The notes: generated by a model from the letters alone, not told the origin. A DNA stretch of 21,236 nucleotides from Chthoniobacteraceae bacterium (GCA_031409335.1 JANNWY010000275.1:1-21236); one strand, 5' to 3'; shown: positions 1 to 19,961, numbered from the stretch's first letter. Made by a program: numbers and translations.

Positions 1-3000
1 AGCGACGGCTGCGCCGACGGACACCGACAGCCCTGCGCCACCCAACGCCGCGCCAATCGAAGCGGCACCGGCCCCCGCGGCAATACTCGACGAATCCTCG
101 GCAGAGATTTTGATCGTGTCCGCCGAGACGCCAGTAGCGCCGTCGCCGTCGATGTAGGCCTTCACGTCCGTCGCAATGCGGTTCTCGGCGTAAACTCCCG
201 CGCCACTGGCCGCGAGGCCGATGCCGCCGCCAGCCACCGCCGCGGAAATCGCCAGCACCAGCGCATGGACGGACTGCTCGCCCGTCGCAGTGAAGCTCAG
301 ATCGCCGCCAGCGTTGATGCTGGTGTCTTCGGAATAAGCATGCACGTCCACCGGCGCGTCCGTGCTGCCGATGCGATTGCGCGCGATGGCCACGCCGATC
401 GAGGCACCGAGGCCGCCACCACCCACAGCCACACTGGCCGAGGCCGAGACGATCTTGGCATCGATGGCGGAGGTGTTATTGGCGGTGAACGTCACCGCGG
501 TCGCGGCATCCAGCGAGCTGTCCACCGCATAGGCCTTCGCACCGCCCAAGATCGTGTTCTCGGCGAGAGCACCCGCGCCACTGATGGCGATGCCCACGCC
601 GCCACCGCCCACCGCCAGCGAGACCGCGACCGACAACGCGTCGATCGACGCGTCCTCGATCGCCGTCACGGTGATCGCGCCGGTCGTAGCCGTCACGTCG
701 GCATCGGCGATGAACGCATCCACACTGCTGTCCACCGTATTACTGGCCAGCGATACGCCGATCGATATCCCAGCGCCCGCGATGCCGAAACCCGCGGCCA
801 CCGAGGCGGCGGCCACGTCGGCGTGGATGTGGGAAAGGTCTTGCGCGCGCAGGGTCACGCTGGTGGCCCTGATGACGGAGTCCACCGTGTCGTTGCCGTC
901 GATGTAAGCCATCACGTCCGTCGTGATGCGGTTGTCAGCCGCAGCGCCCGCGCCGCTCGCCGCGATGCCGAGGTAGAGACCTCCGGCCACGGCCACTGAG
1001 CCGGAGAAGACGAGAGCGTCGATGGACTGGTCGCCCTTGGCCGTTACCGAAAGAGCACCGCCGGCATTGACCGGAGTGTTTTCGATATAGGCCAGCACCG
1101 CGAGCGGCGCGCTGACTACATTGACCAGCTTCCACGCATCGGGGTTGGCGAAGTCCTGATCAATCGCGGTGATTTTGCGCCAGAGCGTTTCGTCGGTGTA
1201 ATCCACCGTGCTCAGGTTGGTGCTGGCGAGGTTGGCACCGGTGCGTTCGTAAACGCGATTGCCGCCGACGAGCACCCGCTCGCCCTTCTTGACCGCCGTG
1301 GTCTGGCTGCTGGTGAAGTCGTAATCAACCGTGACGGTGTCGCCGAGGTATTCGTAAACGTCGCCCTCGCGCACTCCGCGCTCGACTCGCACCTTGTCGC
1401 CCTTGTGCAGCGTGAGCACGTTGTCGGCGGACTTGTAATCAAACGCCGCGCTTCCGTCGCGGGTCGAACCCACCAAATTACGCGCCAGTGCCACGCCAAT
1501 GGACGCACCAACGCCGGCATCGGCACCCACGCCGACGCCGACCGAAGCCGCGACGATGATCGCATCGATGGACGAAAGATTTTCAGCGCGGACGGTCACC
1601 GCACCAGTCGCAGCAAGGTCGCTGTCGGACGCGTGCGCATCGACACCACCTGTGATGATATTCTCAGCCCACGCTCCCGCGCCGCTGACGGCGATGCCGG
1701 TGGAACCGCCCACACCGACCGCGACCGAGGCCGCGAAGGCTACTGCATCGATGACCGCGACGTCGGTGGCTGTAATCGAGATGATTCCAGCCGTTGCGTC
1801 CACATCGGCATCTTCGATAGAGGCCCGGACATGGCTATCGACGGTATTGCGGGCCAGGCCCACGCCGATGGAGACGGCAACCCCAACCTGACCGAAGGCC
1901 GCGGCGACCGACGCCGCACCAGCAAAGGAGTGGACGAACGAGCCGTCCACCGCATCCAGCGTGACGCTGTCGGCCTCAATCTTGGTAGCGTCCTCGCCGT
2001 CGATGCGGCTGGCCACATCGACGCCTACCCGGTTCTCCGCGAACACACCCGAGCCAGCAGCAGCCACGCCCACGGTGCCGCCGGCAGCCACCGCGACCGA
2101 GCCGGCAAAGACCAACGAATTGATTGTCTGGCCAGCCAGCGAGGTCAATGCAAGCGCGCCATCAGCATGCACTGGTGTATCGATCAACAGGGCCTGAACT
2201 TCCAGCGGTGTCGCGCTGTCGTCGCCGGGTTCCCAGCCGATGAAGTTGCGCGCCACGGCGATCCCGATCGACACGCCCACACCGGCGGTACCACCGCCAC
2301 CGACCGCCAGAGATGCTGCCACGACGGTGGAAAAGATGTCCGACTTGCTGGCCGCGCTGATCAACACGTCTCCCGCGCTATCGATGGTGCTGTTCTGGCC
2401 ATAGGCCGTGGTTTTACCCAGGATGACATTCTGGGCCACGGCCCCCGCGCCGCTGACCGCCACGCCTACGGTGCCGCCGCCTATGCCCACGGCCAGTGAG
2501 GCCGCGGCAGATACCGCATTGATCGAGTTCTTCGAGACGCTCAGTGTTAGCGGAGCACCGTCTGCACTGGTCCGTACCAGCACAAAGCTCTGGCCGTCCG
2601 GTGCCAACAGCGCCCAACTCTGGCCGGCCTCCAGCGTGGATAGCTTGAGCTTGTCGAGCAACAGCCACTTTGTCGTGTCGGTATAGTTTTCGGCTGCGAG
2701 GATGACGTTGTCCCGGTCAACCGTTCCCACATAACGGTAAACACGCCCAGGGATGCCGTTGGAATTGGCACCCGCCTCGACGGTGGTGCCCTCGCGCAGA
2801 TCCTGCGGGTCGGTGTCCGTCGTTTTGAAGGTCGAAGCCGTGGCCACGGTGTCGAAGACGGCTAGAGTTGTGCCTTGCGCGGCGAAGGCGGCGCGCAGCG
2901 CCGCCAGCAGGACTTGGTCGTTCCGCACATCGTTGGTGGCCTCGTTGTTCGCCGTATCGCTGATATCCTGGTCGGCCACCGCGGCATCGTCGAGGTCACT

Positions 3001-6000
3001 CGCGGTCAGCGTGCCCAAGTTTACCGCGAACGGGCTCAGAGGCGACGTAAGCGCGGAGATGGTGACGGCCCCCGAGGTCGTGGTAAGACCTTGGTCAGCG
3101 TCGATGACGTATGCGGAAACCTCGTTATCGATCCGGTTTTCCGCCAGCGCCAGGCCGATGGACACCGCGATCGCGTTGGACCCGGCCAGGGCAAGCGCCA
3201 CGGCCGCCGCTCCGGCTGCGGCTTCGATACTGGAGGAGTCGGTGGCCGCCAGCGTGATGCTGCCAGCGTTGATTCCGGCGTTCACGCCCGTGCCATCGCC
3301 GTCAATGTAGGCCTTCAGGTCGATGGCGATCTCATTTTTGGTGTACACCCCGGAACCGCTGATCGCGAGCGCATTGGCGTTGCCGCCCAAGCCGACGGCC
3401 AGGCCGATCGAGCCGGCACCCACACCTGCATGGATGTGCTGGGTGGACGTGCCCGTTATCGTCAAGGCGTCGTCCGCGTTGAGGATGGAATCCTGCGAGT
3501 AAGCCAGTATCTCGCTGGATGTCAGGCCGCCGGTCGGATCGACTCCGATGTAGTTCAACCCGACGGAGGCACCGATGGCCGCGCCGCCGCCTGCCAAGGC
3601 GATGACAAGCGCGTCAATCGAACCCTGTTGCGTGGCCGTGATCGTCAGATCGCCAGAGCTGTCGATATCACTGTCTAAAATATAGGCGTTCGTCTTGCCG
3701 AGGATGACGTTGGTCGATTCCGCACCAGCGCCGGCCACCGAGAAGGAGAATTGGCCGCCGATAGCAATGGCCAGCGATGCGGCAGTGGACGCCGCATTGA
3801 TCGTTGCTTCGCCCCTCGAACTGACGTGGACATCGCCGAGGGTGGTGCTGACGTCCGAGTCGTCGATGTAGGCCAGCACGTCGTTCTCGACGCGGTTGTG
3901 CGAGAGCGACAAGCCGATCGAGACGGACACGCTGCCACCTGAACTCCCGCCAATGGCCGCGCTAATCGCCACGCCGACCGTGACCGCTTTGATCACGGCG
4001 GACGAAGTCGCCGCAACATCGACGTCCTGGCCGGCAGTGACGGTGGAATCAGCCACGTAGGCCGTGATGTCGTTTTCGATCTCGTTGACGGCGACGGTGG
4101 CACCGAGCGCCACGGCCACGCTGGTGCCGGACCCTTGAGAGAGCGCGAAACTGCCGGCGATCGAAATGGCGTTGATGGTGGTCGCGTCGCTCGCATCGAC
4201 CGCCACGCTCCCGTTGGTTGCGGTCACGACGCTGCCATCCAGGACGTAGGCCGAGATGATGCTGGTCACCGAATTACCCGCACCTGCCGCGGCGCCGGCG
4301 AGCGCCACTCGTATTCCGGGACCGGAGCCGGTCGCACCGGCCCCGGCCCCGGCAATCGACAGCGCATTGACGCCCGCCTGGGACGTGGCTTCGACCGAGA
4401 CGTCGCCATTGGTCGTGCTGACGTTGGCGTCGTCGATCCAGGCCATGATGTGATGGCCCGAGCCGCCGCCGATGTCATTCACCGCCACGCTGGCACCGAG
4501 GGATCCGGCCACCGAAGTCCCACTGGCACGGCTCAACGACAGCGCGAAGCCACCGGCATCGGCGCGCGTGTTGGCGGCGTCCGTGGCCGTCAGGCTGACG
4601 CCGGAGCCGGCGTGGATGCTTCGACCGGTGCCCGTGCTGTCGTCCAGGATGTAAGCCTCGACCTCGTTGTCGATGAGATTGGTGGAAGCGGCACCCGCCA
4701 GCGCCAGGGCCGCAGCGCCAGCGGTGCTGGATGCTCCCGCGCCTGCGACGCCGATGGCTAGTGCAAACACGTTCGGCTCCGAACTGGCGGCGACACTGAG
4801 GGCACCGGCGGCATCGACCGTGGAATAACGGATGCTCGAGCGGTCCTTATTTTTGACCGTGTTGAGCGCGATGCCCATGCCGATCCCCACCGCGGCGTTG
4901 CCGGTCCGGCCCTCGGCATAGGCCGCGGCCACGCCGAAGGCATCGGCGCGCAGCAGCTTGGTGCGGTCGGTGGCAGCCAGCGTGACATTGCCACCTAAGC
5001 CCGAGACCAGGCTGGTGGTGATGGTTGCATGGTCGAGGTAGGTCTCGACGCGGGCTTGCATCGAGTTGACTGCGACTGCGGCGGCCGCGGCACCGGCGAA
5101 CGAGCTGCTCGCCGTAATGCTGCTCGGCGAGTTGGCGAAAGCGCCACCCACGGCCAGAGCATGCACGTTGGCGGTCGACTCAGCCTCCATGACAAGGTTG
5201 TTGGCAATGACCTTGGAATTGTCGATGTAACTCTGCACCGCATAGCCCGTGGTTCCGCCAATCGTGTTGACGGCCAGCGACGCGCCCAGTGACAACGCGA
5301 GCGAGCCCGCTTCGTCCTGGCCCCAAGCGATGGAAACCGCGCCGGCTTGGGAGAACACGCCGGTGCCGTCATCGCCGGCATTCAAAGTTACGTTGCCGCC
5401 AGCCTGGACCGAACGCGCCCCGGAACTGTCGGTGATGTAGGCACCGATGTCGTTGTCGAGCAGGTTGATGGACGCCGCGCCGGAAATCGCCACGCTGATC
5501 TGGTCGGCGCTCGCGTAGGAGCCGCCGACGGCAAAGGCCTCCAGGATCGGTTTGCCGCTGGCTTGCAGGCTGATGTTGCCGCTGGCGTTGACAGAGGCGG
5601 TGTCGATGTAGGCCTGTGACTTGTCGTTCACGACGTTGAGCGCCAGACCCACGGCCACCGCGCCGGAGGCGGTGACGTAGGTTTCGTCCGGCGCTTCGGC
5701 CTTGGCTCCGGCCACCGCGAAGGTGCCGACAAATCCGCTGTTCTCGGCATTGACAAGCAGATTGCCATCAACCGCGAAACTGCCACCCGCCAGGTTGTCG
5801 ATGACGCCGGCGCGATTACCGATCACCGCCTCGGTATTGCGCTTTAGCATGTCAATGGCGACCGAGGCGCCGATGCCCAGCTTTTGCGAGGCCGCGTAGG
5901 AGCCGGCAATGGTCACCAGTGTGCTGCTGTCGAGTGCTTCCACCACGGCGCTCACGCCGCGACCCGCGATCTCGTTGTCACCGACGACGACATCGGCGCG

Positions 6001-8100
6001 GTTGTCCACCTGCGCCAGCGCGGTGCCGGTGGCGATGTTGACGATGACCACGCCGTTGAAGGCGACCGATTCTGCATCACCGCCCGACGCGCCCACGTTC
6101 ACCGCGAGCAGCGTGTTCGCAGCCCTGACTTCGAGGCTGTCGGCGTACAGTTTGACGTTGTCTTCTACCTTGGCGGTGGCGTCGTTGTTGTAGTTGAACA
6201 CCAGCACCGTCGCGCCCGCGGCACCTTCGGTCTTTTTCGTTAGCCCACTGCCGGCACCCGACGGAATGTACTTCTGCGTGAACGACCTGTAGGGGCTGAA
6301 GGTGTTCTTACCTTTCGCGTTTGCGGTCCTGTCCACGGTCCAGGTGCGGAGGTCGCTCGTGGATTTGAAGCCCAACTTGTCCAGGCCGATGGTCTGTATG
6401 TTGCCGCCCACGCCGACGGCGTTGATGACGTTCTTCGCACTCACCGTCACCGTCTGGGCGTCGGTGCGCCAGGCGGCGTCGGCGTTCTGGTTGACCTTTG
6501 CGCCGTCCTCGATCAGCGCGGTACTTCCGTGGTCGAGCCGGACGAAGGTGACAGCGCCCGCCAGGGAGGCCTTTTTCTGCCCCTCCGCCCAGGCTTGGTT
6601 GTAGAAGTCCGCCAACTTGCTGTTGATGCCGAAGTTGCCGTTCAAGAACGCGATTGCCTGCTGCACGAAGGACTTGAAACCGTTGGCCTCCAGATTGATC
6701 TCTTCCCACTTCAGGTCGTTGCCGAAATCTTCAGCGGCGCGGTCCAGCGTCGCACCGTCAACGCCCTTGTACCTGTAGGTCTTGCCGCGTCTGTCTTCCT
6801 GCGCGTGGTTGTTGCCGACCTTGACCGTGTCACCCGCCTTGAGCGAGGGCGCGCTGCCGGTATCCTCGGTATTGAACTTGGCCTTGAAGTTCTTATCGAG
6901 AAATGGCGTGACGATGTTGGCACCCCAGAGCTTGAGCGGGTCGATCTGGTTGATGGAATCAGCTTTAATGGTGATCGCCTTTGCAGCGTTCACATCGACA
7001 TCGCCTGAGACCGTGGCCCAGGTCGAGTTCTGGTAAACGCCCACCGCCACGGCAATCGCGATGCCGTAGTCAACGTCACCCTGCACCGGGATCAGGCCCG
7101 TCGGGTCGGTGGCACCACCGGGAAACTTGGCACCGGCCTGCGCCGTCAGGTCGGCGCGGCTGCTCACCGTCGAGGTGACGTTGATCTTGCCGCCGGCATT
7201 GATGGTGGTGCGGTCCGCGGCATCGCCGTCGCCGATACGCGCGTCGGTGTTGTTCGTGTCCACGCTGACGGCGATGGACAAGCCGCCCTGGACGGCACTG
7301 CGCTGGACCGGCTTCGGAGCATCGGCCGGCAGAGTCGCGCCGAAGAAAGCGAACCAGTCCAGAATGGGAGCGATCAGCTTGGCATGACCGTATCGGCCCA
7401 CCGCGCCGGGTGCCATCGCCTCGATATCGTCGAGTTGGTCGCCGGTCGAGTTGGCGCCCTGGCGCGCGTCAGAGCCCACCCCGTTGAAAGTGGCGGGGAT
7501 AACGTAGGCCTTGAAGGCCTCGACGGTTTCCTTCTTTTGCTTCGCGGTGACGTTGACGTTGCGCTGCACCTCGGCATCGCCGTCGAGATAGGCGCGGGTA
7601 TTCCCGCTTTCGACGGCGACCGTGAAGGCCAGCGCCACGTCGCCATCAGCGCCACTGGTGACGCGCGTGCGGGTGGAGTTGCGATCCACGGTGTCGGCCT
7701 GCAAGAACAGGTCTCTGCCCACGGTGAGCTGCGCGGCGTCCTTCACATGCACGGTCGCGTTCGAGTCGAGCACGCTGACTGCGATGGCGATGCCGGTGTT
7801 CCCCAATCCGGGGATCGGCAAGTTGCCGTTCGTGTCGGCAAACACATAGACGGTGTGATCGACGCTCGCTCGGAATGTCGCATCCATCACCGTGGTGATG
7901 TGGGCGGCACCGATGGTGACGTTGGCATCGGTGATGGCTACTCCGATTGCCGCGGTGAAGCCGCCGAAGAAATCGATTGGGGCGGCCCAGGCATAGGCCG
8001 CCGCGTTCGACCAGGCGGTGAGGTTGTCGGCAATGATGACGGCGTTGTCGTCCACGGTGACGTGGGCAACCGACTTGGCGACCGACACGGCGATTTGCAC
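1..8100 (-). repeat. Tandem ~60-65 aa Gly/Ala/Val/Ser-rich repeats of LktA-leukotoxin/filamentous-adhesin type (predicted beta-solenoid stalk)
   Basis: Recurring consensus (G/S)xGx(S/A)VAxNxIxNxVxAYIxDSxVxAxGxVxVxA....IxAx..A.SxAxGG, e.g. LGATVAVNEIENDITAYVADSTVTAGQDVDVAATSSAVIKAVTVGVAI. Regular from about 5700 to 1 and degenerate from about 8100 to 5700. Family name is from resemblance only. Confidence 0.7.
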
Positions 8101-11100: not shown

Positions 11101-13812
11101 CACGCCCGCACCGATCAGCCCGAGATCGACGGCCGCGAAGGAACCGTTGCGCGCTGTGACCTGTAATGTGCCTGCGCCGCCGGTGCCATCGACGATGACC
11201 AGACGCAACCCGTCGGCACTAATGCGCGCAGACAGTCCGCGCTGGCTCCCGTAGATAGCGTTTAGCACATCCTGAATGCCTTCCGCCTTGGTAAGGTCGA
11301 TGTCCGACCGTGTGCCGTCGCTCAAGGTCACCAGCAGGTCGCTGCTGATGTCGGAAATCGGGACGCCAGTTAGAACCGAGCCTTTGCCGGAACCGTTGGC
11401 CTCAACTGCCGTTCCGGTCGCCGTGGGCGCACTGCCCTTGCCCAGAATGCCGAGACCGGCCGCGGCCTTCGAGCCGTTCAAGGCGTTGACCTTGATTTGA
11501 GCGCTGCCGGTTTTCGTATCGGTCAGGATGAGCGCCGTGTGCTCGGCGTTTACTCCCACGCTGATGCGGTCGCCCACGCCGGCGGCGGTCGCCGCGGCCG
11601 TGATCTTGTCAAAGACGGCACCCAGCGTGGTGTCGCCGGCACCCAGGTCGATGGTAAGTTTTGTGACGCCGTCGGTCAGCACGATCTCAAAGTCCGCGCC
11701 GGCCACGAAGGGCACGCCGTCGCCGTTGTTGAGCTGGGCCAACACCGTTGCGCGCGACAAATTGAGATCCAGCAAGTTGCTGGTGCGCACGCCAGCCCCG
11801 CCGTTCAGGGCCTCGAACAGGATTTCCGAGCCGCCGTCCAGCTTGACGCCGCCGGCAATGCCGCGGCCGATGAGGCCGCCGACTGCGCCGGCGACGTTCA
11901 GGCCCAGTTCGTTGGCAAGATTGGAGCCGGACGAAGCGGTCAGCGCGGTGCTGCCGGTCGGTGTGACATCGGTGATCGCGATACCGGTAAGCGCGGCATT
12001 GATGCTCGCGCCGAGATTCGGGTGGGCCGCCTGGATGGCGGCCAGCACGTCGCCCACGGTTACGGCGTCAGCGAGATTGACGTTGACCCGCGTGCCGTCC
12101 CGCAGCGTAAGGCTGAGGTCGTTCGCGGTGACGTTCACGCTGCGGCCGTTGTTCAGGAAGGACAGGGGCGTCGCGCCGGTCAAGCGCAGGCCTGTAAAGG
12201 CTGCGGCGTTGAGGCTATTACCGTGGGCACCGCCGATCAGAGTCGCGAGTTCGAAGCTGGTGAGCGTGTCCACGGTCGCACCGGACGTGAGGCTGATGTC
12301 GGTCAGCGTCAGGTCGGCGTCCTGGCGTTCCCACAGCGAGTCGATGCCCGCGCCGCCGTCCAAGGTGTCGGTACCGCCCAAGCCGCCGAGCGTGTCATTG
12401 CCCGCGCCGCCGACCAGGATGTTGCTGTTCTGGTCGCCGATGATGATGTCGTCGAGCGCCGTACCGGTGACGTCGTGGAAGCCGGTGACTGAAACGAATC
12501 CCGTCGCCCTGCCTTGGACGAGGCTAACGGTGACGCCGGTGTCGCCATCGTCACTGCTGTAGTCCAGCTTGTTGCGCGCGCCCGTGCCGCCGATCAGCTT
12601 CTCGATGTTTTGCGTGACGATGCTGCTGGTGCCGTCGCCGACGCGGAAATTGCCGTTAGCATCGACGTTCAGCACCACCGTCAGGTTGGCGCTGACGGTT
12701 GAAAAATCGAAGGTGTCGGTGCCTGCGCCCGAGTTGGCGCCCGAACCTTCCGATACGGTGTCGGAGCCCCAGTTGGGACCAAAGCTATAGAAATCGTCAC
12801 CAACTCCGCCGTCGAGTGCGTCATTTCCCGCGCCACCCACTAACACGTTGTTCAGGATGTTGCCGGTGAGCGTGTCCGCGAGGCCGGTGCCGATTAGATT
12901 TTCGATCGCCTCGCCGCTGGAGAGCTTGAGGTGGAGGTTGCCGTTGACGGTCTGATCCGCGTCCGTGGAAAGGTCGATCGTGACACCGGCCGACGTCGTC
13001 AGAGAAAAGTCCAGCGTGTCCACACCGCCGCGTGCATCGTCGATGGTGATGGTGCCCAAGTTACTGTCAGCGTCGATCTGGTAGCTGTCGTCCTGGTTAC
13101 CGCCCACCAGCCGCTCGATTTCACTGAAAGGCCGGCCATTGAGGCTCCTCGTCGCGCCGAGAATCCAAATGTTGGTAAGATCGCCACCCACCAGCGAGTC
13201 CGCGCCTTCGCCACCTTTGATCTCACCGCTAAGCGAGCCACCACCGAGCAATTTGAAACTGTCGTCACCGCTGCGGCCGGTGAGGTTTTCGAGGCTGTCG
13301 AAGAGGCTGATACTATTGGCGAAACCGGCGTTGGCGTTGTTGATCGTCCAGTCGGTCGGGGCGTCCGGTCCGATCAGGGTGTCCGTTCCAAGGCCGCCGT
13401 GGATCGTCAGAGGTTTGGTCAGGGCGTCCGCCGTGAAGCTGTCGTTGCCGCCCGCGCCATCGACCACCAAGCCCAAAACGCCAGAAGTCGCGTCGCCCAA
13501 AGTGAGCTTCTTCAAAACCGAAGCGTTGTCGATGTAAGTGAGGTCAACGATCACGCCACCGTTGGCCGACGCCGCAGTGGACGCGAGATGGATGCCCACG
13601 ACATCGTCCGTGCCAGCGAAAGCGACGGTGTAAACACCAGCGACGTTCGTCATCACCGGATCTGCCGAAAGCAGCAAACGCGGCTCGAAGCTCTCAAGGT
13701 CGAAACGGCCCGGACGAACGGCGCGCTTTTTAGAGAGTTCCGCCCGTGCATTTCGTTCCCGCTTCCGTTCAAGGAGACGATTAAACCAACTGGCGAACGT
13801 AGAGGCTTTCAT
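1..13812 (-). CDS. Giant LEPR-XLL-leader surface protein / filamentous adhesin with RTX Ca-binding repeats (at least 4604 aa; 3' end beyond window edge)
   Basis: ATG at 13812 gives MKASTFASWFNRLLERKRERNARAELSKKRAVRPGRFDLESFEPRLLLSADP... The same frame is read at every segment translated, down to base 1 (...AYIDGDGATGVSADTIKISAEDSSSIAAGAGAASIGAALGGAGLSVSVGAAVA). The in-register antisense ORFs on + (265, 1405, 2875, 4135, 5884, 7384, 9145, 10054, 11497, 12931) all share one frame, and the track lists no stop-terminated minus ORF in this frame, so no frameshift is evident. Confidence 0.93.
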   Translation of the reverse strand, partial: MKASTFASWFNRLLERKRERNARAELSKKRAVRPGRFDLESFEPRLLLSADPVMTNVAGVYTVAFAGTDDVVGIHLASTAASANGGVIVDLTYIDNASVLKKLTLGDATSGVLGLVVDGAGGNDSFTADALTKPLTIHGGLGTDTLIGPDAPTDWTINNANAGFANSISLFDSLENLTGRSGDDSFKLLGGGSLSGEIKGGEGADSLVGGDLTNIWILGATRSLNGRPFSEIERLVGGNQDDSYQIDADSNLGTITIDDARGGVDTLDFSLTTSAGVTIDLSTDADQTVNGNLHLKLSSGEAIENLIGTGLADTLTGNILNNVLVGGAGNDALDGGVGDDFYSFGPNWGSDTVSEGSGANSGAGTDTFDFSTVSANLTVVLNVDANGNFRVGDGTSSIVTQNIEKLIGGTGARNKLDYSSDDGDTGVTVSLVQGRATGFVSVTGFHDVTGTALDDIIIGDQNSNILVGGAGNDTLGGLGGTDTLDGGAGIDSLWERQDADLTLTDISLTSGATVDTLTSFELATLIGGAHGNSLNAAAFTGLRLTGATPLSFLNNGRSVNVTANDLSLTLRDGTRVNVNLADAVTVGDVLAAIQAAHPNLGASINAALTGIAITDVTPTGSTALTASSGSNLANELGLNVAGAVGGLIGRGIAGGVKLDGGSEILFEALNGGAGVRTSNLLDLNLSRATVLAQLNNGDGVPFVAGADFEIVLTDGVTKLTIDLGAGDTTLGAVFDKITAAATAAGVGDRISVGVNAEHTALILTDTKTGSAQIKVNALNGSKAAAGLGILGKGSAPTATGTAVEANGSGKGSVLTGVPISDISSDLLVTLSDGTRSDIDLTKAEGIQDVLNAIYGSQRGLSARISADGLRLVIVDGTGGAGTLQVTARNGSFAAVDLGLIGAGVTLSGGVLTGNAIASGGITLDGRGDHDTLIGGTGDDNLTGAGGNDAITGGGGIDTLVESDFSSLGNASFVLTNSAVTTTIPGLAVQTDTLSGIERAILSGGDGANTLDASAFTAGGVTLIGNDGDDTIFGGSGDDVISGGLGIDATTGGGGIDTLLELGDSRFVLTPTTLDLGEGASEVVTIALAPGVTGGTFTLTFNGQTTSPIAHDATADDLRSALTALPEIGDDQVRVDKDTAAGTWTITFSGNLAGRNVGNITVTSSLTGSASVAIADGLTQLNTLGGIEKVNLYGLSGNNLMDASAFTGSVVLSGGYGEDVLIGGSGNDLLLGEWGDDQLTGGAGADRLRGGEGHDKLVESRDVNFTLTNTTLTETGTGISGSEVDALTGIELAELTGGASNNTLNASAFSGLSAETELRLLNAGLGIGTTNAPSVVLAGLEPSTPVAVFFSEAPGGANAVGATDFTITLTDGTQAQIDVDPAGTLQDLFNAIANAAPGKLLAEMNEDGTAIKLTDSTVGNPGANLTITSAANSTVAADLGILKTGNGKTLTGDFFTDYSSDIRIILADGSRVDIDLSEAVTIQDVLDAITDSRPTGLSAVLNSAGTAIVITSTVGGAGRLEVQARNGSTAAQILGILSVAPVATPTVLTGAAIGISQVVLVGGAGADTLVGGGGDDRLTGGLGADLLTGGGGSDTVVETRDANFTLTNTTLSIGGETDTLAGIERAELTGGASVNTLDASAFTLGGVILSTGGGLDTLLGGSGNDEFRILVDGLVAPTNASDTAHQVKVDVGGGIENAVSIEKSGPSVVQSDMWWVNYLGGAESSYTVKKANPNAAYTGDEEFVVESDIIRPGKNISIEAGRITIHGHKLDTSFAGGGGSIKLLGKHITIDQGAELTALDAASGAQGPGLSALAAAGFNHGTIRIEAKDGAKFSAFGFANVDLVDTDVTIRNATIRAGNVEILATSDSQHFLLPSDYPSSLSGHTGFGSLLGLDLDFARTFESQSVQIAVSVAKSVAHVTVDDNAVIIADNLTAWSNAAAYAWAAPIDFFGGFTAAIGVAITDANVTIGAAHITTVMDATFRASVDHTVYVFADTNGNLPIPGLGNTGIAIAVSVLDSNATVHVKDAAQLTVGRDLFLQADTVDRNSTRTRVTSGADGDVALAFTVAVESGNTRAYLDGDAEVQRNVNVTAKQKKETVEAFKAYVIPATFNGVGSDARQGANSTGDQLDDIEAMAPGAVGRYGHAKLIAPILDWFAFFGATLPADAPKPVQRSAVQGGLSIAVSVDTNNTDARIGDGDAADRTTINAGGKINVTSTVSSRADLTAQAGAKFPGGATDPTGLIPVQGDVDYGIAIAVAVGVYQNSTWATVSGDVDVNAAKAITIKADSINQIDPLKLWGANIVTPFLDKNFKAKFNTEDTGSAPSLKAGDTVKVGNNHAQEDRRGKTYRYKGVDGATLDRAAEDFGNDLKWEEINLEANGFKSFVQQAIAFLNGNFGINSKLADFYNQAWAEGQKKASLAGAVTFVRLDHGSTALIEDGAKVNQNADAAWRTDAQTVTVSAKNVINAVGVGGNIQTIGLDKLGFKSTSDLRTWTVDRTANAKGKNTFSPYRSFTQKYIPSGAGSGLTKKTEGAAGATVLVFNYNNDATAKVEDNVKLYADSLEVRAANTLLAVNVGASGGDAESVAFNGVVIVNIATGTALAQVDNRADVVVGDNEIAGRGVSAVVEALDSSTLVTIAGSYAASQKLGIGASVAIDMLKRNTEAVIGNRAGVIDNLAGGSFAVDGNLLVNAENSGFVGTFAVAGAKAEAPDETYVTASGAVAVGLALNVVNDKSQAYIDTASVNASGNISLQASGKPILEAFAVGGSYASADQISVAISGAASINLLDNDIGAYITDSSGARSVQAGGNVTLNAGDDGTGVFSQAGAVSIAWGQDEAGSLALSLGASLAVNTIGGTTGYAVQSYIDNSKVIANNLVMEAESTANVHALAVGGAFANSPSSITASSSFAGAAAAAVAVNSMQARVETYLDHATITTSLVSGLGGNVTLAATDRTKLLRADAFGVAAAYAEGRTGNAAVGIGMGIALNTVKNKDRSSIRYSTVDAAGALSVAASSEPNVFALAIGVAGAGASSTAGAAALALAGAASTNLIDNEVEAYILDDSTGTGRSIHAGSGVSLTATDAANTRADAGGFALSLSRASGTSVAGSLGASVAVNDIGGGSGHHIMAWIDDANVSTTNGDVSVEATSQAGVNALSIAGAGAGATGSGPGIRVALAGAAAGAGNSVTSIISAYVLDGSVVTATNGSVAVDASDATTINAISIAGSFALSQGSGTSVAVALGATVAVNEIENDITAYVADSTVTAGQDVDVAATSSAVIKAVTVGVAISAAIGGSSGGSVSVSIGLSLSHNRVENDVLAYIDDSDVSTTLGDVHVSSRGEATINAASTAASLAIAIGGQFSFSVAGAGAESTNVILGKTNAYILDSDIDSSGDLTITATQQGSIDALVIALAGGGAAIGASVGLNYIGVDPTGGLTSSEILAYSQDSILNADDALTITGTSTQHIHAGVGAGSIGLAVGLGGNANALAISGSGVYTKNEIAIDLKAYIDGDGTGVNAGINAGSITLAATDSSSIEAAAGAAAVALALAGSNAIAVSIGLALAENRIDNEVSAYVIDADQGLTTTSGAVTISALTSPLSPFAVNLGTLTASDLDDAAVADQDISDTANNEATNDVRNDQVLLAALRAAFAAQGTTLAVFDTVATASTFKTTDTDPQDLREGTTVEAGANSNGIPGRVYRYVGTVDRDNVILAAENYTDTTKWLLLDKLKLSTLEAGQSWALLAPDGQSFVLVRTSADGAPLTLSVSKNSINAVSAAASLAVGIGGGTVGVAVSGAGAVAQNVILGKTTAYGQNSTIDSAGDVLISAASKSDIFSTVVAASLAVGGGGTAGVGVSIGIAVARNFIGWEPGDDSATPLEVQALLIDTPVHADGALALTSLAGQTINSLVFAGSVAVAAGGTVGVAAAGSGVFAENRVGVDVASRIDGEDATKIEADSVTLDAVDGSFVHSFAGAASVAAAFGQVGVAVSIGVGLARNTVDSHVRASIEDADVDATAGIISITATDVAVIDAVAFAASVAVGVGGSTGIAVSGAGAWAENIITGGVDAHASDSDLAATGAVTVRAENLSSIDAIIVAASVGVGVGADAGVGASIGVALARNLVGSTRDGSAAFDYKSADNVLTLHKGDKVRVERGVREGDVYEYLGDTVTVDYDFTSSQTTAVKKGERVLVGGNRVYERTGANLASTNLSTVDYTDETLWRKITAIDQDFANPDAWKLVNVVSAPLAVLAYIENTPVNAGGALSVTAKGDQSIDALVFSGSVAVAGGLYLGIAASGAGAAADNRITTDVMAYIDGNDTVDSVIRATSVTLRAQDLSHIHADVAAASVAAGFGIAGAGISIGVSLASNTVDSSVDAFIADADVTATTGAITVTAIEDASIDALSVAVSLAVGGGGVGIAISGAGALAENTILGGAKAYAVDSSLDAATAVTFTANNTSAIDAKIVSASASVAVGGGGLGASIGVAIARNRIGSTDAPVDVHAYSEDTSINAGGDLSFTATGEQSVHALVLAISAAVAGGGIGLAASGAGVYAENRIATDVKAYIDGDGATGVSADTIKISAEDSSSIAAGAGAASIGAALGGAGLSVSVGAAVA
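8820..13460 (-). repeat. RTX-type GGxGxD Ca-binding nonapeptide clusters with a recurring ~50-aa capping unit (protein-level repeats)
   Basis: Examples: LVGGAGNDALDGGVGDD; LVGGAGNDTLGGLGGTDTLDGGAGID; LIGGSGNDLLLGEWGDDQLTGGAGADRLRGGEGHD; LVGGAGADTLVGGGGDDRLTGGLGADLLTGGGGSD. Five clusters are followed by DxLxE..D.NFxLTxTxL...DxLxGIExAxLxGG...NxLxASAFT (near 12340, 10945, 10645, 10050, 9035). Confidence 0.88.
13660..13704 (-). other. LEPR-XLL (Planctomycete extracellular-type) N-terminal motif, FDLESFEPRLLLSAD, after an Arg/Lys-rich N-terminus
   Basis: Residues 37-51 of the giant ORF. There is no hydrophobic h-region, so this is not a classical Sec signal peptide. It matches the xLExLEPRxLL(S/A) motif of giant PVC/proteobacterial surface proteins. 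Confidence 0.85.
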
Positions 13813-13956: not shown

Positions 13957-15945
13957 TTATCCTGATCGATCACCCACAAATGAGAGCGCTTCCGCAAGCC
14001 ACGTATCAGTCTTCAAGACCTCTTTTCGCTGCCGAAAAGCCATGCTCTGAGCGGAGCGTTGGGCAAAGGTGATCGCGGTTGCCACCAGCGGTTTCGCCCC
14101 CGGCAAACCGCGCCGCACAGCTTGTCGCGCCTTCTCGCGGACCAGCGGTGCGGCAAAACGGGCGAGAATTTCATCCTCAACGCTGACGAATGCCTGCGCG
14201 CTGCCCGGATCACCCTGCCGGCCGGCCCGACCATAAAGCTGGCGGTCGATCCGCTGCGACTCGTGCCGTTCCGTGGCGATCACATGAAGACCGCCCGCTT
14301 CACCCACCCGGGCACCGAGCTTAATGTCAGTCCCCCGCCCCGCCATATTCGTGGCGATGGTGATCCTCCCAAGCTGGCCCGCGCTTGCCACGATCTGCGC
14401 CTCCTCGCGATGGCGCGTCGCATTCAACAGATTGAACGGCAGCCCTTTGGCGCGCAGTTCCGTTGCGAGCATTTCGCTCGCCTGCACGGTGCGCGTGCCG
14501 ATGAGCAAGGGCTGCCCTGTCTGATGCCGCCGCTCGATTTCGGCCACAACCGCTGCCCATTTGGTCTCGAAATCGGGAAAGATCTGGTCCGGCAGTTCCC
14601 GCCGCTGGCACGCGCGGTTCGTGGGGATCGCCACCACGGGAATCCGGTAGATGTGCCAAAACTCCGCAGTCGCTTCGCGGCCCGTGCCGGTCATCCCGGA
14701 GAGCCGGTGGAACAATCGGAAAAACCGCTGAAAGCTGATCCGCGCGAGCGTTTCATCGAGCGGCGACATTTCCAACCCCTCCTTGGCCTCAATCGCCTGA
14801 TGCAGCCCCTGCCGCCATTTCCGCATCGGCATTAAGCGCCCGGTTGACTCATCGACGATGACCACTTTGCCGTCGTCGATCACATACTGTTTGCCGTTCA
14901 GGAAAAGCTCACGGGCGGTAAGGGTTTGCTTGATGAGTTCCGTCCGCCGCGAAGGCGCGCGCCACAGGCCGGGCAACTGACCACTCAACGCGTCCATCTT
15001 CTCGTGGCCAGCAACGAGCAGCTCGATCTCGCGATAGCGCAGGTCCACGCGGTAATCGACGCCCGGCAGAAACCGCGAGGCAATCGACCAGGCGGTGTGA
15101 TAAACGCCATCCCCGCGCTCGTTTCCCTCGGAGCCCGCAATGATCAGCGGAGTCACCGCTTCATCGATCAGCACGCTGTCCGCTTCATCCACAATCGCCG
15201 TGTGCAGCCCCCGCATCACGGCGTCGTTCCTCGTCGGATCGTTGGCTTTCCACACCGCCCGGATCATCCGACGCCCGGCATGCTGCAGCTCACCCAAGCA
15301 AAGCCGGTCCCGCAGGAAATCCGCGGCGAGTTCCTTGCTCGTCGTGTAAGTCACGTCCGCCGCATGGCCTCGGGCGCGTTCCGCCCGGGGCATCTCGCCT
15401 GTCACAAACCCGACCCGAAGGTCGCAGTATTCATAAAGTGAGCGGAGCCATTCCGCGTCGCGCTGAGCGAGGTAGTCATTCACCGTAACGAGGTGACACG
15501 GCCGGCCCGTCCAGCCAGCGAGAATCGCCGCCAACCCAGCGGTCAGCGTCTTGCCTTCGCCCGTCGCCATCTCCGCCAGATAACCCCGATGCAGCGCGAG
15601 CGCGCCCATCAATTGCACCGGGAACGGCCTCAATCCGGTCTGGCGCACCGAGGCTTCACGAATCGCCGCGAGGGCTTCCAGCACATGCGCTTCCGCCCGT
15701 CGCGGCTGACGGCGAAAGGTTTCGCGGAACTCTGTGAGCCGTTCCCTCAGCCGCGCGTCATTCAGATCGGCGAACTGTGAACCGAACGCGTCAATTTTCT
15801 CCGCGTCCGCCCGCAGCGAGGCGAGAAGGCCACCGCGCCGCCGGCAAACGCCGATGAAACCATCGACCATCGCATCCAGTCCGCTCGTGATCTTCGGCGG
15901 CTGCCGGACATTGCACAGCCGCTGCTCCCAAGTCAGCGCACTCAC
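13957..15945 (-). CDS. Secondary, C-terminally truncated SecA-like DEAD ATPase (~662 aa)
   Basis: SecA motifs: Walker A MATGEGKT (15547-15570), VTVNDYLAQRDAEW, IVDEADSVLIDEAVTPLII (DEAD at 15178-15189), GLHQAIEAKE, GMTGT, ATNMAGRGTDI, ERHESQRIDRQLYGRAGRQGDPG. The likely start is GTG at 15945, overlapping the upstream TGA (GTGA), rather than the track start at 15990. Confidence 0.92.
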   Translation of the reverse strand: MSALTWEQRLCNVRQPPKITSGLDAMVDGFIGVCRRRGGLLASLRADAEKIDAFGSQFADLNDARLRERLTEFRETFRRQPRRAEAHVLEALAAIREASVRQTGLRPFPVQLMGALALHRGYLAEMATGEGKTLTAGLAAILAGWTGRPCHLVTVNDYLAQRDAEWLRSLYEYCDLRVGFVTGEMPRAERARGHAADVTYTTSKELAADFLRDRLCLGELQHAGRRMIRAVWKANDPTRNDAVMRGLHTAIVDEADSVLIDEAVTPLIIAGSEGNERGDGVYHTAWSIASRFLPGVDYRVDLRYREIELLVAGHEKMDALSGQLPGLWRAPSRRTELIKQTLTARELFLNGKQYVIDDGKVVIVDESTGRLMPMRKWRQGLHQAIEAKEGLEMSPLDETLARISFQRFFRLFHRLSGMTGTGREATAEFWHIYRIPVVAIPTNRACQRRELPDQIFPDFETKWAAVVAEIERRHQTGQPLLIGTRTVQASEMLATELRAKGLPFNLLNATRHREEAQIVASAGQLGRITIATNMAGRGTDIKLGARVGEAGGLHVIATERHESQRIDRQLYGRAGRQGDPGSAQAFVSVEDEILARFAAPLVREKARQAVRRGLPGAKPLVATAITFAQRSAQSMAFRQRKEVLKTDTWLAEALSFVGDRSG

Positions 15946-18095
15946 AGGCCGTAGCGCTGTTGGAGCAGTTGATCGAGCTTGCGCAGCCACTGTCGCAGCA
16001 GCGGTTCCGGTGGAAGCTCGAAGCGGATTCTCCCGGAGCGGCCATCCATCAGCGTGACGCCCGACGTCGCACCGACCGCAGCGCGCATCTCGAAGAATGG
16101 TTCGCGCGCTGTCAGCCCCGAGGCGTCGGTGGAAGCCACCGCCACTTCACCGCCGGATCGCCAGCCGAGCGCCGCGGAAGGCAGCGTTTTTCGATCCGCG
16201 GGAATGACCTTCCGCGCATTGACCGGGAGCGCCACCCCCGCCCGGCCAAACAACCGCACTTCCCCCGAGCGAATCTCGCCCGCAAACAGCCGCGATGCTT
16301 CCTCCTGCGAAATGATCGCGCAAAATTGGAACGCGCGCGGATTGGCGACTTCGCCTAGCATTTTCCCGCGAGCCAGCCAGGAGCCTTCATAGTCCTCGAC
16401 CTCCCGCTCGATCCAAATGCCGTCGTGAGGCGCGCGGATCACGAGATTCTCCTGCTCCTTTAGCAATTTCGCCCGGCGTTTCTCGATCGCCACGATCCGG
16501 CTTTCGATCGGCTCAAGATCCGAAATCGCCTCCTGCTCTGCCTGAGCGCGCCGTGCCATGGCCTCATCGAATTCCGCCTGTGCCGATTGCAGATTGAGCT
16601 CCAGTTCGTAATTCGACAGCCGCACGAGCGGATCGCCCAATCGAACCGTCTGACCTGGCTTCGCGACGATCTCCTCCAGTCGTCCCGGCGTCTCCGCACT
16701 GATGATCCGGTGTTCGACCGATTCGAGAATTCCCGGCGCGCGAAAGCGGCTTGGTGCCGGCACAATTCCAAGACCGATGAAGATTAGCCCCAGACCAAGC
16801 ACGGACACCAAAACCGCGCGTCCCCGCTGCCGGCCGAGACGCGGACTGGTCGCAAGATACTTCGCCAGCCGCACGATCGGCACGACCAGCCACGAAGCGG
16901 CACAAACGATCGCCATGATTACGCCGAGAATAAGAAAGCTATCCGAGAGAAGCAGGACGATCGCCGCGAAAACGAAGATCCGGTAAATGTTGCTAGTCAG
17001 TCCATAAAACGTCAGCCACGCTGCTTCGCGAAGGGTCCACGACTGGCTCCGTGCCTGCGTGCAACCAAACAAGTAACGCTCCGCCAGATAGGTGAGTTGC
17101 CGTGTCGCACGCTGTTGAAGATTCGGAATATCCAGCAGGTCCGAGAAGATATAGTAGCCATCGAAGCGCAGGAGCGGATTGACGTTAAAAACAACCGTCG
17201 AGACCGATGCCACTAAGATGACATTATAAGCGAGGCCATTGATCGTGCCCGGTCCCGTATAGGCCCAGACGACCGCAGCGATGGCGGCGACGAACAGTTC
17301 CGCGATCATTCCAGCCGCTCCGACAAACGCGCGTTTCCACCGACTTCGAAAAGCCCATGAAGACGTCGTGTCCACATAAGGCACCGGCGTGAAAATCATC
17401 AGCATCAAACCCATGACATGCACTTCGCCACCCAGCCGCCGGCACACACACGCGTGCCCAAATTCATGCAGCGCCTTCACCACAACGAAACTCAGGTAAA
17501 GCAATGCTATATTCCCGGGCGCAAGCATAGCCTGACTCTGATCCCTAAACGTGGGTGCATGGTCGATGACCATCTTAAGGCCGAAGACCACGACACCCAG
17601 CCAGATGATCGCACCCACCGGACTGATCACGCGGCGCAACAGCGGCAGAATCGACTTTAAGAACGCATCCGGATCGAGGAGCGGAATCCGCGAATACATT
17701 ACGTTCATCCATCGCGAACGGGTTTCCTGCTCGCGCCGTTTCCTGTATCGCTCGAAGATCTTTTCGCCGTCTGGCGGTAGATTGGAATGCAATAGGTTGC
17801 TCGCGTTCAACTGAGCCAGAAGGCGGATCACGTCTTCCTGCCCAGGCGCATCCTCCGGGTGAGCCTGCACACACTCATGCCACACGGATTCCACCGTGCG
17901 ATTCGACCTTAGTCGGGCGACGAACTCATAGGCTGCCGGCTGTAGTCGGAAGAACTGATTATTGAAGGCATCGTGCAGCACATAACAACGCTCGCCGCGG
18001 AAGTATTGCCGCTGCACCTGCACATGCGGTCGCAAAGCCACGCAATGGTCGGCGACCCGGTACCACGATTCGCTAAAGGTCGTCGCTTCACTCAT
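15942..18095 (-). CDS. PqqD-like N-terminal domain + site-2-protease (M50) membrane metallopeptidase + C-terminal HlyD-like adaptor domain (717 aa)
   Basis: HEFGH zinc motif (17454-17468) and NVNPLLRFDGYY (NxxPxxxxDG) lie among several hydrophobic TM segments. The C-terminal part has lipoyl-like hairpin halves (ISAETPGRLEEIVAKPGQTVRLGDPLVRL ... LVIRAPHDGIW) around a coiled coil. The N-terminal ~100 aa show a PqqD/RRE-like beta3-alpha3 pattern. Confidence 0.88.
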   Translation of the reverse strand: MSEATTFSESWYRVADHCVALRPHVQVQRQYFRGERCYVLHDAFNNQFFRLQPAAYEFVARLRSNRTVESVWHECVQAHPEDAPGQEDVIRLLAQLNASNLLHSNLPPDGEKIFERYRKRREQETRSRWMNVMYSRIPLLDPDAFLKSILPLLRRVISPVGAIIWLGVVVFGLKMVIDHAPTFRDQSQAMLAPGNIALLYLSFVVVKALHEFGHACVCRRLGGEVHVMGLMLMIFTPVPYVDTTSSWAFRSRWKRAFVGAAGMIAELFVAAIAAVVWAYTGPGTINGLAYNVILVASVSTVVFNVNPLLRFDGYYIFSDLLDIPNLQQRATRQLTYLAERYLFGCTQARSQSWTLREAAWLTFYGLTSNIYRIFVFAAIVLLLSDSFLILGVIMAIVCAASWLVVPIVRLAKYLATSPRLGRQRGRAVLVSVLGLGLIFIGLGIVPAPSRFRAPGILESVEHRIISAETPGRLEEIVAKPGQTVRLGDPLVRLSNYELELNLQSAQAEFDEAMARRAQAEQEAISDLEPIESRIVAIEKRRAKLLKEQENLVIRAPHDGIWIEREVEDYEGSWLARGKMLGEVANPRAFQFCAIISQEEASRLFAGEIRSGEVRLFGRAGVALPVNARKVIPADRKTLPSAALGWRSGGEVAVASTDASGLTAREPFFEMRAAVGATSGVTLMDGRSGRIRFELPPEPLLRQWLRKLDQLLQQRYGL

Positions 18096-18098
18096 AGC

Positions 18099-19961
18099 CT
18101 ACCACCAGAAATACATGCGCAGGAAATCCATCGTCCTATGAGTTACCACCCACAATAGACTACGCTTACCCACTTCCAACTTTGCCACCCCGCTCATGCC
18201 CGGTCGCATCCACGGCTGAGGGGGGCCCTCAAAGTCACATCGGGCGATATAGATGTTGGCGTTATCCTTCGCTTGAGCCGCTGGCTCCACGGACCGGATG
18301 TGAACCGGAAAGGTTAGCTTAGGCAGGCTGGCAAACGCGATCTCACCCCGGCCACCTTCCCGGACATCCTCCACGTCACGTTCATTGACCTCGCACTCCA
18401 CATAGACACGATCTGTGCGCGCAATCTTAAAAAGCACATCCCCCTGCTTCACCGGCGCACCGATGCGTTTGCGCAAATCTCCCTCGACCACCGCTCCAAT
18501 GAACGGCGCAAGGAGTGTCGCCTGATTTCGATGAAACCGCAGCAAGTCCAGCTTCACCCGCACCTGTTCCGCTTGCGCCTCCGCGATCCGCATATCCGCG
18601 ATCTTTTCCACGGCCCGCGCCTTTTCAATTTCCCGCAAATACCGCGCTCGATCCGCGACCGCCTCTGCTTCCCGCAATAGTAATTCCCGGGTATCGAGAG
18701 TAGCCAGCACGGCACCCTGTTCCACCCGGTCACCCACTTCCACCTTCACCTCTTCGATATAGCCATCGAAGGGAGCGGACACGAATCCGGCATCCTGCGT
18801 CCGCAGGGAAAAGGGCGCTTCCACACGGTAGTTCCAGTGCCCGAAAATCAGCACTCCCAGTGCAATAGTCGTCAGCACACCCACTAACTTTGCACCCGTA
18901 TGCTCCGGCCCCGCCAGCCACTTCACCCGCTCCCGCGCCACCGTCGCCCAGCGTGCGCCAAACCAGCGATCACTGCGTTTCAGATCCGCCAGACGCCGCA
19001 TCGCCATTTCCCCGCAGAGCGCCAGGAGGCGAAGCTCTACTTCATTAAAAGCATACTTGTCCCGCTCGCAGGTCAGCACCGCGACCGGCTCCCCGTCCAC
19101 CCGCAACGGCAACGAGCACACAAATGCCACCCGGTGCGCCTCGGCCAGCCGGCCATGATCGCGCGTCACCAAACGCTGCCGCTCCGGTTCCGGCCAGACG
19201 ATGATCTCATCCTGATCGAGCGCCTCTTCCATCGCCGCCTCCAGCGTCTTCACCGCCTCCATCTTCTTTTCAAAACGCTCGCTGTGACTCATCGCGCGCA
19301 GCCCGACATATTCATGATCGAGCCATCCCAAACTCACCCGATCACAACGATGCCGCGCCGCCAGTTCATTGCAGAAAGCCATCGCCGCCGCCATGAAACG
19401 CTCGTGCGCATTCACCTGCGTCATCAAGTCCAGCACCGACGCGAAATGCGAGACCGCCGTCTCCGAGCGGGTCGCCTGCATTTGCAGCCGATGAATCGCC
19501 GGCAGATGCGAGAGCAGCCTCAGATGGCGAAGTGATTCCTCCGCAGAAGCCGATGTAACGCCAGTCAGGAGAAACGCCGCGACCCAAGCTTCAGACTGCT
19601 GATCCATGACCAACCGCACGGCCAGAAAAAAATCACCCACCGCCGCCGTGCCCGCCTGAACACCGCGGCAGACCCCACCATGCTGCACCGCCGCTTCCGC
19701 CAAATCGCCAGCCACACGGGCAAAACTCTCAGCCGCTCCCTTGGCGGCGGAATCGGAAGGCCAGCTCATTACCTGCTTCCATCCGGGCGACTCCTTCGGC
19801 CCTTCACACAGCAGCACAGCGAGGCGGGCCTCCACCACGTTCGTCAAGATGGACAAACACGTCTCCCAGAAACTCTTGGGCGATCCCGCCAAGTCAGGCA
19901 AACGTTCAAGGGCAGACAGAGCTTCCGCAAAACGGTCAGGATGGCTGAGTTTGTTCGACAT
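18099..19961 (-). CDS. GAF-domain-containing HlyD-family membrane fusion (periplasmic adaptor) protein (~620 aa)
   Basis: Likely true start is ATG 19961 (MSNKLSHPDRFAEALSALERL...). GAF-like region (CDRVSLGW...AFVCSLPLRVDGEPVAVLTCER), one TM segment (LVGVLTTIALGVLIFG), then MFP hairpin VSAPFDGYIEEVKVEVGDRVEQGAVLATLD...coiled coil...LLAPFIGAVV, and MRPGMSGVAKL. The stop lies 3 nt before the next ATG. Confidence 0.87.
   Translation of the reverse strand: MSNKLSHPDRFAEALSALERLPDLAGSPKSFWETCLSILTNVVEARLAVLLCEGPKESPGWKQVMSWPSDSAAKGAAESFARVAGDLAEAAVQHGGVCRGVQAGTAAVGDFFLAVRLVMDQQSEAWVAAFLLTGVTSASAEESLRHLRLLSHLPAIHRLQMQATRSETAVSHFASVLDLMTQVNAHERFMAAAMAFCNELAARHRCDRVSLGWLDHEYVGLRAMSHSERFEKKMEAVKTLEAAMEEALDQDEIIVWPEPERQRLVTRDHGRLAEAHRVAFVCSLPLRVDGEPVAVLTCERDKYAFNEVELRLLALCGEMAMRRLADLKRSDRWFGARWATVARERVKWLAGPEHTGAKLVGVLTTIALGVLIFGHWNYRVEAPFSLRTQDAGFVSAPFDGYIEEVKVEVGDRVEQGAVLATLDTRELLLREAEAVADRARYLREIEKARAVEKIADMRIAEAQAEQVRVKLDLLRFHRNQATLLAPFIGAVVEGDLRKRIGAPVKQGDVLFKIARTDRVYVECEVNERDVEDVREGGRGEIAFASLPKLTFPVHIRSVEPAAQAKDNANIYIARCDFEGPPQPWMRPGMSGVAKLEVGKRSLLWVVTHRTMDFLRMYFWW

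Follow-up and report, generated by a model that had tools for sequence, protein, structure and literature searches.

We analyzed a 21,236-nt stretch of DNA from a Chthoniobacteraceae bacterium (GCA_031409335.1 JANNWY010000275.1:1-21236), referred to at its full length as the window, in which four neighboring genes had been predicted to form a type I-like secretion operon without an ATP-binding cassette (ABC) transporter. The window is an entire contig (C275) of a 7.9 Mb assembly that is 98% complete and divided into 326 contigs. The nearest named homologs of its M50 protein are from Chthoniobacteraceae, and two studies of freshwater-sediment or sediment metagenomes supplied the runs containing the contig. 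All four genes lie on the minus strand, in the order GAF-MFP (a GAF domain joined to a membrane fusion protein, MFP, adaptor), RRE-M50-MFP (a RiPP recognition element, RRE, joined to an M50 protease and an MFP adaptor, RiPPs being ribosomally synthesized and post-translationally modified peptides), a short SecA paralog, and a giant gene whose product carries a LEPR-XLL tag. As in the original prediction, the first two genes are separated by 3 nt (GCT) and the second overlaps the SecA-like gene in a GTGA. The giant gene had been said to follow directly; it is indeed adjacent and on the same strand, but 144 nt separate the SecA-like stop from its ATG (position 13812). The single terminator-like hairpin in this gap is at chance level (0.6 +/- 0.9 in shuffled sequences) and was not retained as a terminator. 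The domains attributed to these proteins (GAF and HlyD; M50 and HlyD; SecA without SecA_SW; LEPR-XLL) were recovered, with only the Pfam PqqD match weak and under its cut-off. We found no ABC gene in the window, in agreement with the prediction, and none 3´ of the giant gene on the contig into which that gene continues (C210); no TolC or stand-alone adaptor gene was found in the window. The observed gene module is real and not an artefact.

The giant open reading frame runs from the ATG at 13812 to position 1 and passes in frame into C210 through a 115-nt overlap that is unique in the assembly. Two runs, possibly from the source samples, each contain one contig that spans the junction without mismatch, and the full protein comes to 4,604 + 6,743 - 38 = 11,309 aa. 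The window encodes the first 4,604 aa (1-13812, minus strand), which are adhesin-like with RTX nonapeptides and LktA_tand_53 repeats; the C210 part adds further RTX motifs, DUF7507-like repeats, and, near the C-terminus, a matrixin-like HExxH (HELGHVLGLDH, C210 ~19,790-19,830, ~140 aa from the end). The LEPR-XLL tag LESFEPRLLLSAD (aa 39-51; 13660-13698, minus strand; NF012209 match at aa 39-57, 22.3 bits against a cut-off of 17) is a predicted export leader that follows a basic, non-hydrophobic N-terminus. Hydropathy over 15 residues peaks at 1.33 around the motif, and the first membrane-like stretch does not appear before aa 893. The 35 RTX-like nonapeptides fall at aa 139-1,659 (19 within the first 1,660 aa) and 7,779-9,682, leaving ~1,630 aa between the last motif and the C-terminus and no RTX block at the C-terminal end. 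We also considered whether the protein might be a cytotoxin, but the RTX_toxin and EhxA matches cover repeats only and lie far below cut-off. Longer LEPR-XLL open frames, of 19,000-24,360 aa, were noted on six contigs of other module-bearing genomes. Vreelandella aquamarina, another carrier of the module, has a cargo of 20,892 aa.

The RRE-M50-MFP protein (717 aa; 15942-18095, minus strand) matches Pfam M50 and HlyD, and its AlphaFold2 model has a predicted local distance difference test (pLDDT) score of 91.6. Hydropathy and the model predict ~7 membrane helices, which would place the RRE inside the cell and the adaptor outside. The PqqD-like RRE domain (aa 17-104; 17784-18047, minus strand), the predicted reader of the cargo tag, resembled in VIA-align comparisons two B1 RREs of lasso-peptide systems whose structures include leader peptides (6jx3, Z 9.4, root-mean-square deviation [rmsd] 3.0, 84 residues aligned; 5v1u, Z 9.3) as well as PqqD (Z 8.8). 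The three-strand, three-helix winged RRE fold is recovered in the model, and three independent RRE/PqqD entries concur, together with weak hidden Markov model matches. By the same method, the M50 domain (aa 194-389) aligned with RseP (Z 9.2, rmsd 4.3, 164 residues) and the adaptor (aa 445-704) with MexA-type adaptors (Z 15; Foldseek E 1e-13). A Foldseek search with the entire protein returned adaptors only, the RRE and RseP matches being from VIA-align. The predicted HEFGH zinc motif is present (aa 210-214; 17454-17468, minus strand), with D312 in NVNPLLRFDG as third ligand. Across 138 homologs H210, E211 and D312 are invariant and H214 is kept in at least 90%, while HExGH occurs in 120/120 and NxxPxxxxDG in 117/120, conservation that indicates an intact zinc site in a polytopic membrane domain. 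The daptide HExxH family NF041824 covers aa 39-412 at 187 bits, below its cut-off of 300. A search with the M50 protein gave 4,468 clusters (50% identity) at E 1e-30 or better.

The GAF-MFP protein (620 aa; 18099-19961, minus strand; Pfam GAF E 1e-7, HlyD_D23 E 7e-20) consists of a cytoplasmic GAF region, one membrane helix predicted from hydropathy at about aa 355-377, and a periplasmic HlyD/MFP adaptor. Its residues 1-345 match GAF clusters in the ESM Atlas at 0.93-0.96. A long GTG-start extension upstream of this gene was discarded, as it is the antisense of the neighboring TrwB-like gene described below.

The short SecA paralog (662 aa from a GTG; 13957-15945, minus strand) has SecA_DEAD, PP_bind and P-loop matches without SecA_SW, and a separate full-length SecA is encoded on C83 of the same genome. 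It aligns to residues 23-604 of the 778-residue Bacillus subtilis SecA at ~41% identity. Like SecA and SecA2, it has both of the domains that bind nucleotides (NBD1 and NBD2), the preprotein cross-linking domain (PPXD), the clamp strands and the intercalating arginine, along with half of the long scaffold helix; unlike them, it lacks the wing, the two-helix finger and the C-terminal tail, its loci show no SecY2, and its presumed cargo is without a hydrophobic signal peptide. In an alignment of 61 short SecAs (59 from related loci and two from this genome), Walker A (the predicted GEGKT, aa 129-133; 15547-15561, minus strand), DE-x-D and the clamp arginine R375 (equivalent to R327) never vary, and Q569, R573 and R576 are found in 60/61, with one row truncated. 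In the 30 rows matching the pattern, the homologs end 68-95 aa beyond motif VI. The model (pLDDT 89.8) is nearest to substrate-engaged SecA (template-modeling [TM] score 0.83-0.84, rmsd ~3; 6itc, TM 0.84, rmsd 2.9), as opposed to free B. subtilis SecA (TM ~0.69, rmsd 7-15). According to the portion of PMC9926265 available to us, the SecA clamp (TC-beta strands, R327) moves the substrate while the two-helix finger is static and inserted in SecY. With the clamp conserved and the finger gone, the short SecA thus appears to keep the moving part and to lose the part that docks on SecY.

To place the module in a wider context, we examined the best 80 of at least 562 related loci from a genome scan, only 49 of which reach 15 kb. 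Among loci with 1.5 kb of flank on the relevant side, 65/67 carried GAF-MFP (upstream) and 64/70 a short SecA (downstream), and a small adaptor and TolC were encoded at 56/80 and 24/80, respectively. HlyB-like ABC matches occurred at 2/80 loci, both weak ATPase-domain matches on the opposite strand and neither within the cassette. These counts, and the failure to find a cognate ABC gene downstream on C210, support the prediction of a TolC-type module lacking an ABC transporter. We then searched for the tag in the genomes of 46 of these loci, those on contigs of at least 20 kb, and in 14 control genomes. NF012209 matched in 44/46 module genomes and 0/14 controls, and a tagged gene adjoins the module in at least 20 of the 46 (nine inside the locus, ten by coordinates with contigs confirmed by length, one by coordinates alone).

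The co-occurrence check suggested with the prediction also came out in its favor in Verrucomicrobiota, where the window's M50 clade, the short SecA and the tag go together. In 200 Verrucomicrobiota genomes, 15 from seven families had an M50 protein of the window's clade and 35 a lower-scoring one, a split read post hoc from a score gap (821 vs 490 bits among the sampled genomes) with a model (A1) built from the window's clade, kin not being independent. The tag was found in 14/15 window-clade genomes, 0/35 other-clade genomes, and, marginally, two of the 150 without an M50-MFP protein. A short SecA was present in 15/15 compared with 0/35, two of the 35 having a second SecA of canonical length. 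Among 249 randomly sampled gammaproteobacterial genomes (centre genome removed, one genome unscored), 13 had both M50 and tag, 19 M50 only, three the tag only, and 214 neither (Fisher p 9e-11, a value overstated by kinship). These tag counts are floors, because NF012209 misses other dialects, including those of both giants on C236 mentioned below.

In a FastTree phylogeny of 118 M50 proteins, rooted at the midpoint and read without direction, one clade of 86 has SecA adjacent in 75, and the tag dialect tracks the M50 clade. The RF(A/D)LExFEPRL form is common to the window and the three top-scoring cassettes of the family whose cargo is in view. In a SecA-less sister system, found at nine loci in Gammaproteobacteria and Verrucomicrobiota, TolC, a small adaptor, a shorter GAF-like adaptor and RRE-M50-MFP stand beside LExRxx(F/L)D(G/A)A proteins; most of the complete cargos measure 800-2,000 aa, below the size of most SecA-linked cargos. 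This form of tag was seen at eight loci of the corresponding tree clade, and the three such cargos that we scanned carry DUF4347. The genome studied here has three M50 paralogs (C275, C307 and C201) and two short SecAs (C275 and C236). Of the C307 and C201 RRE-M50-MFP paralogs, one is accompanied by GAF-MFP and the other by TolC, and they belong to separate tree clades. A second system is encoded on C236 (segments 3000-22999 and 1-4300). Its TolC, short SecA and small adaptor genes diverge from those of two giants, one of 4,300 aa with SdrD_B/DUF11 and another, tagged and with DUF4347, that appears to continue into C278 through a 141-nt overlap to reach ~11,000 aa.

A six-frame scan of this genome returned 20 tag-like motifs, 19 of them at most 38 codons from an ATG in frames of at least 545 aa; shuffled versions gave 0, 1 and 0. 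Sixteen of the 20 read xExLExRI(A/V)PA, a candidate third dialect. The sixteen proteins are encoded on 13 contigs, extend 545-5,258 aa after the N-terminal motif, and show no Sec-type hydrophobic stretch. This type was seen in one other of 200 sampled genomes (G303), whose M50 protein groups with the C201 paralog. Such shared dialects would fit pairing of cassette and cargo, and shared descent would explain them too.

TolC and the small adaptor are variable within the family. Among 20 window-clade copies that we fetched, the small adaptor lies within the stretch in seven and TolC in three (13 and 17 without), and two genomes (G517 and G597) each hold both the full and the reduced layout. A possible small-adaptor remnant upstream of GAF-MFP in the window was rejected, as it amounted to a single 23-aa match at E 0.03. 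Elsewhere in the genome, stand-alone HlyD paralogs are encoded on C236, C201 and C35, at no more than 31% identity, and distant outer-membrane efflux (OEP) proteins are present as well. Of the proposal that two MFP-type proteins bridge to an outer-membrane channel, the two fused MFP domains are present, but relatives often have a third adaptor and TolC, and the window cassette is without both. One C39-ABC exporter intermediate between the HlyB and NHLP-ABC families was noted on C281 (402-3860; 1,152-aa frame), downstream of a resistance-nodulation-division (RND)-type efflux operon.

The surroundings of the cassette suggest a possible mobile context. A TrwB/TraD-like coupling ATPase gene (20337-21236, plus strand), cut by the contig end, is divergent from the cassette and starts 375 nt upstream of it, and ParA/ParB/Rep-like frames were read by eye in the translations 3´ of the giant gene on C210, at ~23-28 kb. 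From these genes, the cassette and the giant gene may be within an integrated mobile element.

The gene module itself is already known, as is the idea that SecA is the ATPase and M50 the pore. The report mentioned in the original prediction exists (Kamneva, Poudel and Ward 2015, PMC4452313), and it already proposes this assignment. Its accessible text describes, on computational grounds, a locus of secondary SecA_DEAD, Peptidase_M50-HlyD, GAF-HlyD and HlyD genes, with or without OEP, whose role it calls unknown; Ruegeria pomeroyi DSS-3 and Methylobacterium extorquens AM1 are among the carriers tabulated there. The window shares with that locus a SecA_DEAD protein without SecA_SW besides the canonical SecA, adjacent M50-HlyD and GAF-HlyD genes, and no ABC gene, and differs in having neither small adaptor nor TolC. 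No cargo, tag or RRE is named in the part of that report available to us, and its S2 Table gives five neighbor clusters, none a giant cargo; our analysis adds the cargo, the dialects and the SecA-less sister clades. In the open literature we found no experimental study of the module, subscription papers being mostly outside our coverage.

Several characterized systems resemble parts of the module. Like HlyB-HlyD-TolC type I secretion systems (T1SSs), as described in the available text of PMC8277102, it has HlyD-type adaptors, an RTX cargo and, in relatives, TolC. C39 peptidase-containing ABC transporters (PCATs) likewise carry a fused protease, with which an N-terminal leader is bound and cut off (PMC8277102 and PMC5018854, portions accessible to us). 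Unlike these exporters, the module has no ABC protein; its protease is an intramembrane zinc enzyme of the M50 type in place of C39, an RRE is present, GAF and M50 each come with a fused adaptor, and cargos reach ~20,000 aa without an RTX block at the C-terminus. RiPP leader peptidases (daptide NF041824; lasso B1 RRE) share the order of RRE followed by intramembrane HExxH protease, but the window protein is under the family cut-off, is fused to an adaptor, and has a giant partner instead of a small precursor peptide. Wing-less SecA domains have been described fused inside giant proteins of Omnitrophota, with the suggestion that they export them (10.1101/2023.11.21.568195, available part), and a LEPR-XLL protein is only mentioned in the text of PMC10868602 open to us.

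The one study we found in which LEPR-XLL giants are shown to be exported concerns two LEPRxLL giants of Chlorobium chlorochromatii, Cag_663 and Cag_665, which, in the accessible part of that study, are transferred to the partner and are otherwise periplasmic (10.64898/2026.03.19.712371). They carry the same tag, Cag_665 has LktA-like repeats, TolC and SapC are neighbors, and the genome has an extra, recently acquired secA. In contrast to our reading, the authors describe the proteins as without known transport signals and propose no link between the tag and a module of M50 or SecA; M50 is a term that their main text does not use.

We consider it probable that the module exports the tagged protein, whether in one step or in two. 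Having no ABC protein, the window system does not qualify as a T1SS, and having neither finger nor signal peptide, it does not qualify as a SecA-SecY system. We regard it as an uncharacterized TolC-type export variant that would act like a T1SS or PCAT exporter.

For its mechanism, we lean, at slightly better than even chances, toward a leader-guided, ABC-free exporter that moves its 11,309-residue neighbor in one step with the short SecA as feeder. The LEPR-XLL tag would be captured by the RRE domain and removed by the M50 zinc protease. Helices of the M50 and GAF-adaptor proteins may form a membrane pore, and the adaptors would build a duct leading to TolC, which, like the small adaptor, would be encoded elsewhere and act in trans. 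The short SecA would feed the unfolded chain with ATP, N-terminus first and without SecYEG, and folding outside the cell could provide a second ratchet. In favor of this reading are the conserved gene order, the co-occurrence of tag, M50 clade and SecA, an RRE fold like that of leader-bound RREs, a clamp kept and a finger lost, a tag without hydrophobic core, RTX motifs far from the C-terminus, and the export of the Chlorobium giants.

A number of observations weigh against this one-step model. Binding, cleavage, the pore and secretion are all steps that we infer, the RRE and RseP matches, at Z near 9, are of middling strength, and two clamp side chains differ (N178 is K in 56/61 and F182 is A in 42/61). 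In the 98%-complete assembly no close ortholog of TolC or the small adaptor was found (best 22-31% identity, compared with 36-56% among relatives), and the window copy may be incomplete. The short SecA was present in only 9/32 M50-positive gammaproteobacterial genomes (8/15 high-scoring and 1/17 low-scoring; 0/18 negatives), in a search that also missed even a canonical SecA in one genome, so that misses occur. Thus 7/15 high-scoring, window-clade genomes were without it, Marinobacter suaedae has the module and a tagged cargo of 1,705 aa but no short SecA, and in the tree clade of 23 SecA is adjacent in none. The short SecA therefore cannot be the universal energy source. Of the original proposal that a SecA-like ATPase supplies the energy, the intact ATPase residues stand but the obligatory role does not. 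Because the sister clade and some window-clade genomes lack it, we view the short SecA as a clade-specific accessory motor added to a constant core of tag, RRE-M50-adaptor and further adaptors. The tag is not universal by NF012209 either, with 19/32 M50-positive gammaproteobacterial genomes giving no match, the other tag having been demonstrated in only some of these. Finally, in the available text of 10.64898/2026.03.19.712371, the Chlorobium giants are assigned to TolC/SapC/HlyD with C-terminus-first transport suggested.

The periplasmic retention of the Chlorobium giants when the partner is absent, as given in that same text, would fit a two-step route, in which the short SecA would partner the housekeeping SecYEG in the manner of an accessory SecA2, M50 would remove the tag, and adaptors and TolC would lift the protein from the periplasm. 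The SecA paralogs characterized so far do work with a SecY (PMC4452313, accessible text), and the part of the long helix that contacts the N-half of SecY is partly kept in the short SecA. We nevertheless judge this route rather unlikely. The short SecA has lost both wing and two-helix finger, a hydrophobic h-region is missing from the tag, fusion of the adaptors to inner-membrane domains resembles the arrangement of one-step ducts, and the SecA-less clades retain the remaining genes. In a different division of labor, a classical ABC-type T1SS elsewhere would recognize a signal at the C-terminus of the giant and export it, and the cassette would only process, tether or release it, or sense via GAF. 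The 35 RTX-like nonapeptides and the unlinked C39-ABC exporter on C281 speak for such an arrangement, as does the sensory role suggested for the GAF protein in the available text of PMC4452313. The C281 transporter, the best match in the genome, scores 539 bits against an HlyB cut-off of 726, however, and is also below the LssB and PrtD cut-offs. Neither the cassettes at the 80 loci nor the sequence following the gene on C210 include an ABC exporter, the module itself retains two or three adaptors and TolC, and the RTX motifs are far from the C-terminus. C-terminal signals of T1SSs have no strict consensus. Overall, we find export of the giant by a classical T1SS improbable.

It is also conceivable, if quite improbable, that the family is an exporter and the window copy a disabled or hitch-hiking remnant, which lost TolC and its small adaptor upon insertion of a mobile element upstream. 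The divergent TrwB/TraD-like gene, the ParA/ParB/Rep-like frames after the giant, and the failure to find a TolC or MFP ortholog above 31% identity speak for such a remnant. Yet all frames and catalytic residues are intact, the assembly is in 326 contigs, and the reduced layout of three genes and cargo recurs in other copies, at times beside the full one.

Returning to one-step export, a broader possibility, which we put forward tentatively and at somewhat less than even chances, is that the largest proteins of bacteria have a distinct secretion system, represented by this module. In such a system an RRE would read the tag as in RiPP biosynthesis, a site-2 protease would both cut and gate a TolC duct, and a SecA without SecY docking would ratchet 10,000-20,000 residues N-terminus first. 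Parallel copies in one cell would have their own dialects (here three M50 paralogs, three dialects and ~20 proteins).

These findings address the question of how 1-4 MDa proteins without a signal peptide leave Gram-negative cells. With a tag of 13 residues the idea can be tested cheaply, and the natural SecA-less versions offer a built-in control for the contribution of the motor. If the model of tag, RRE and M50 is true, both a signal and a machine would be assigned to a large family of proteins, and SecA would be acting without SecY, with a site-2 protease as a translocation gate.

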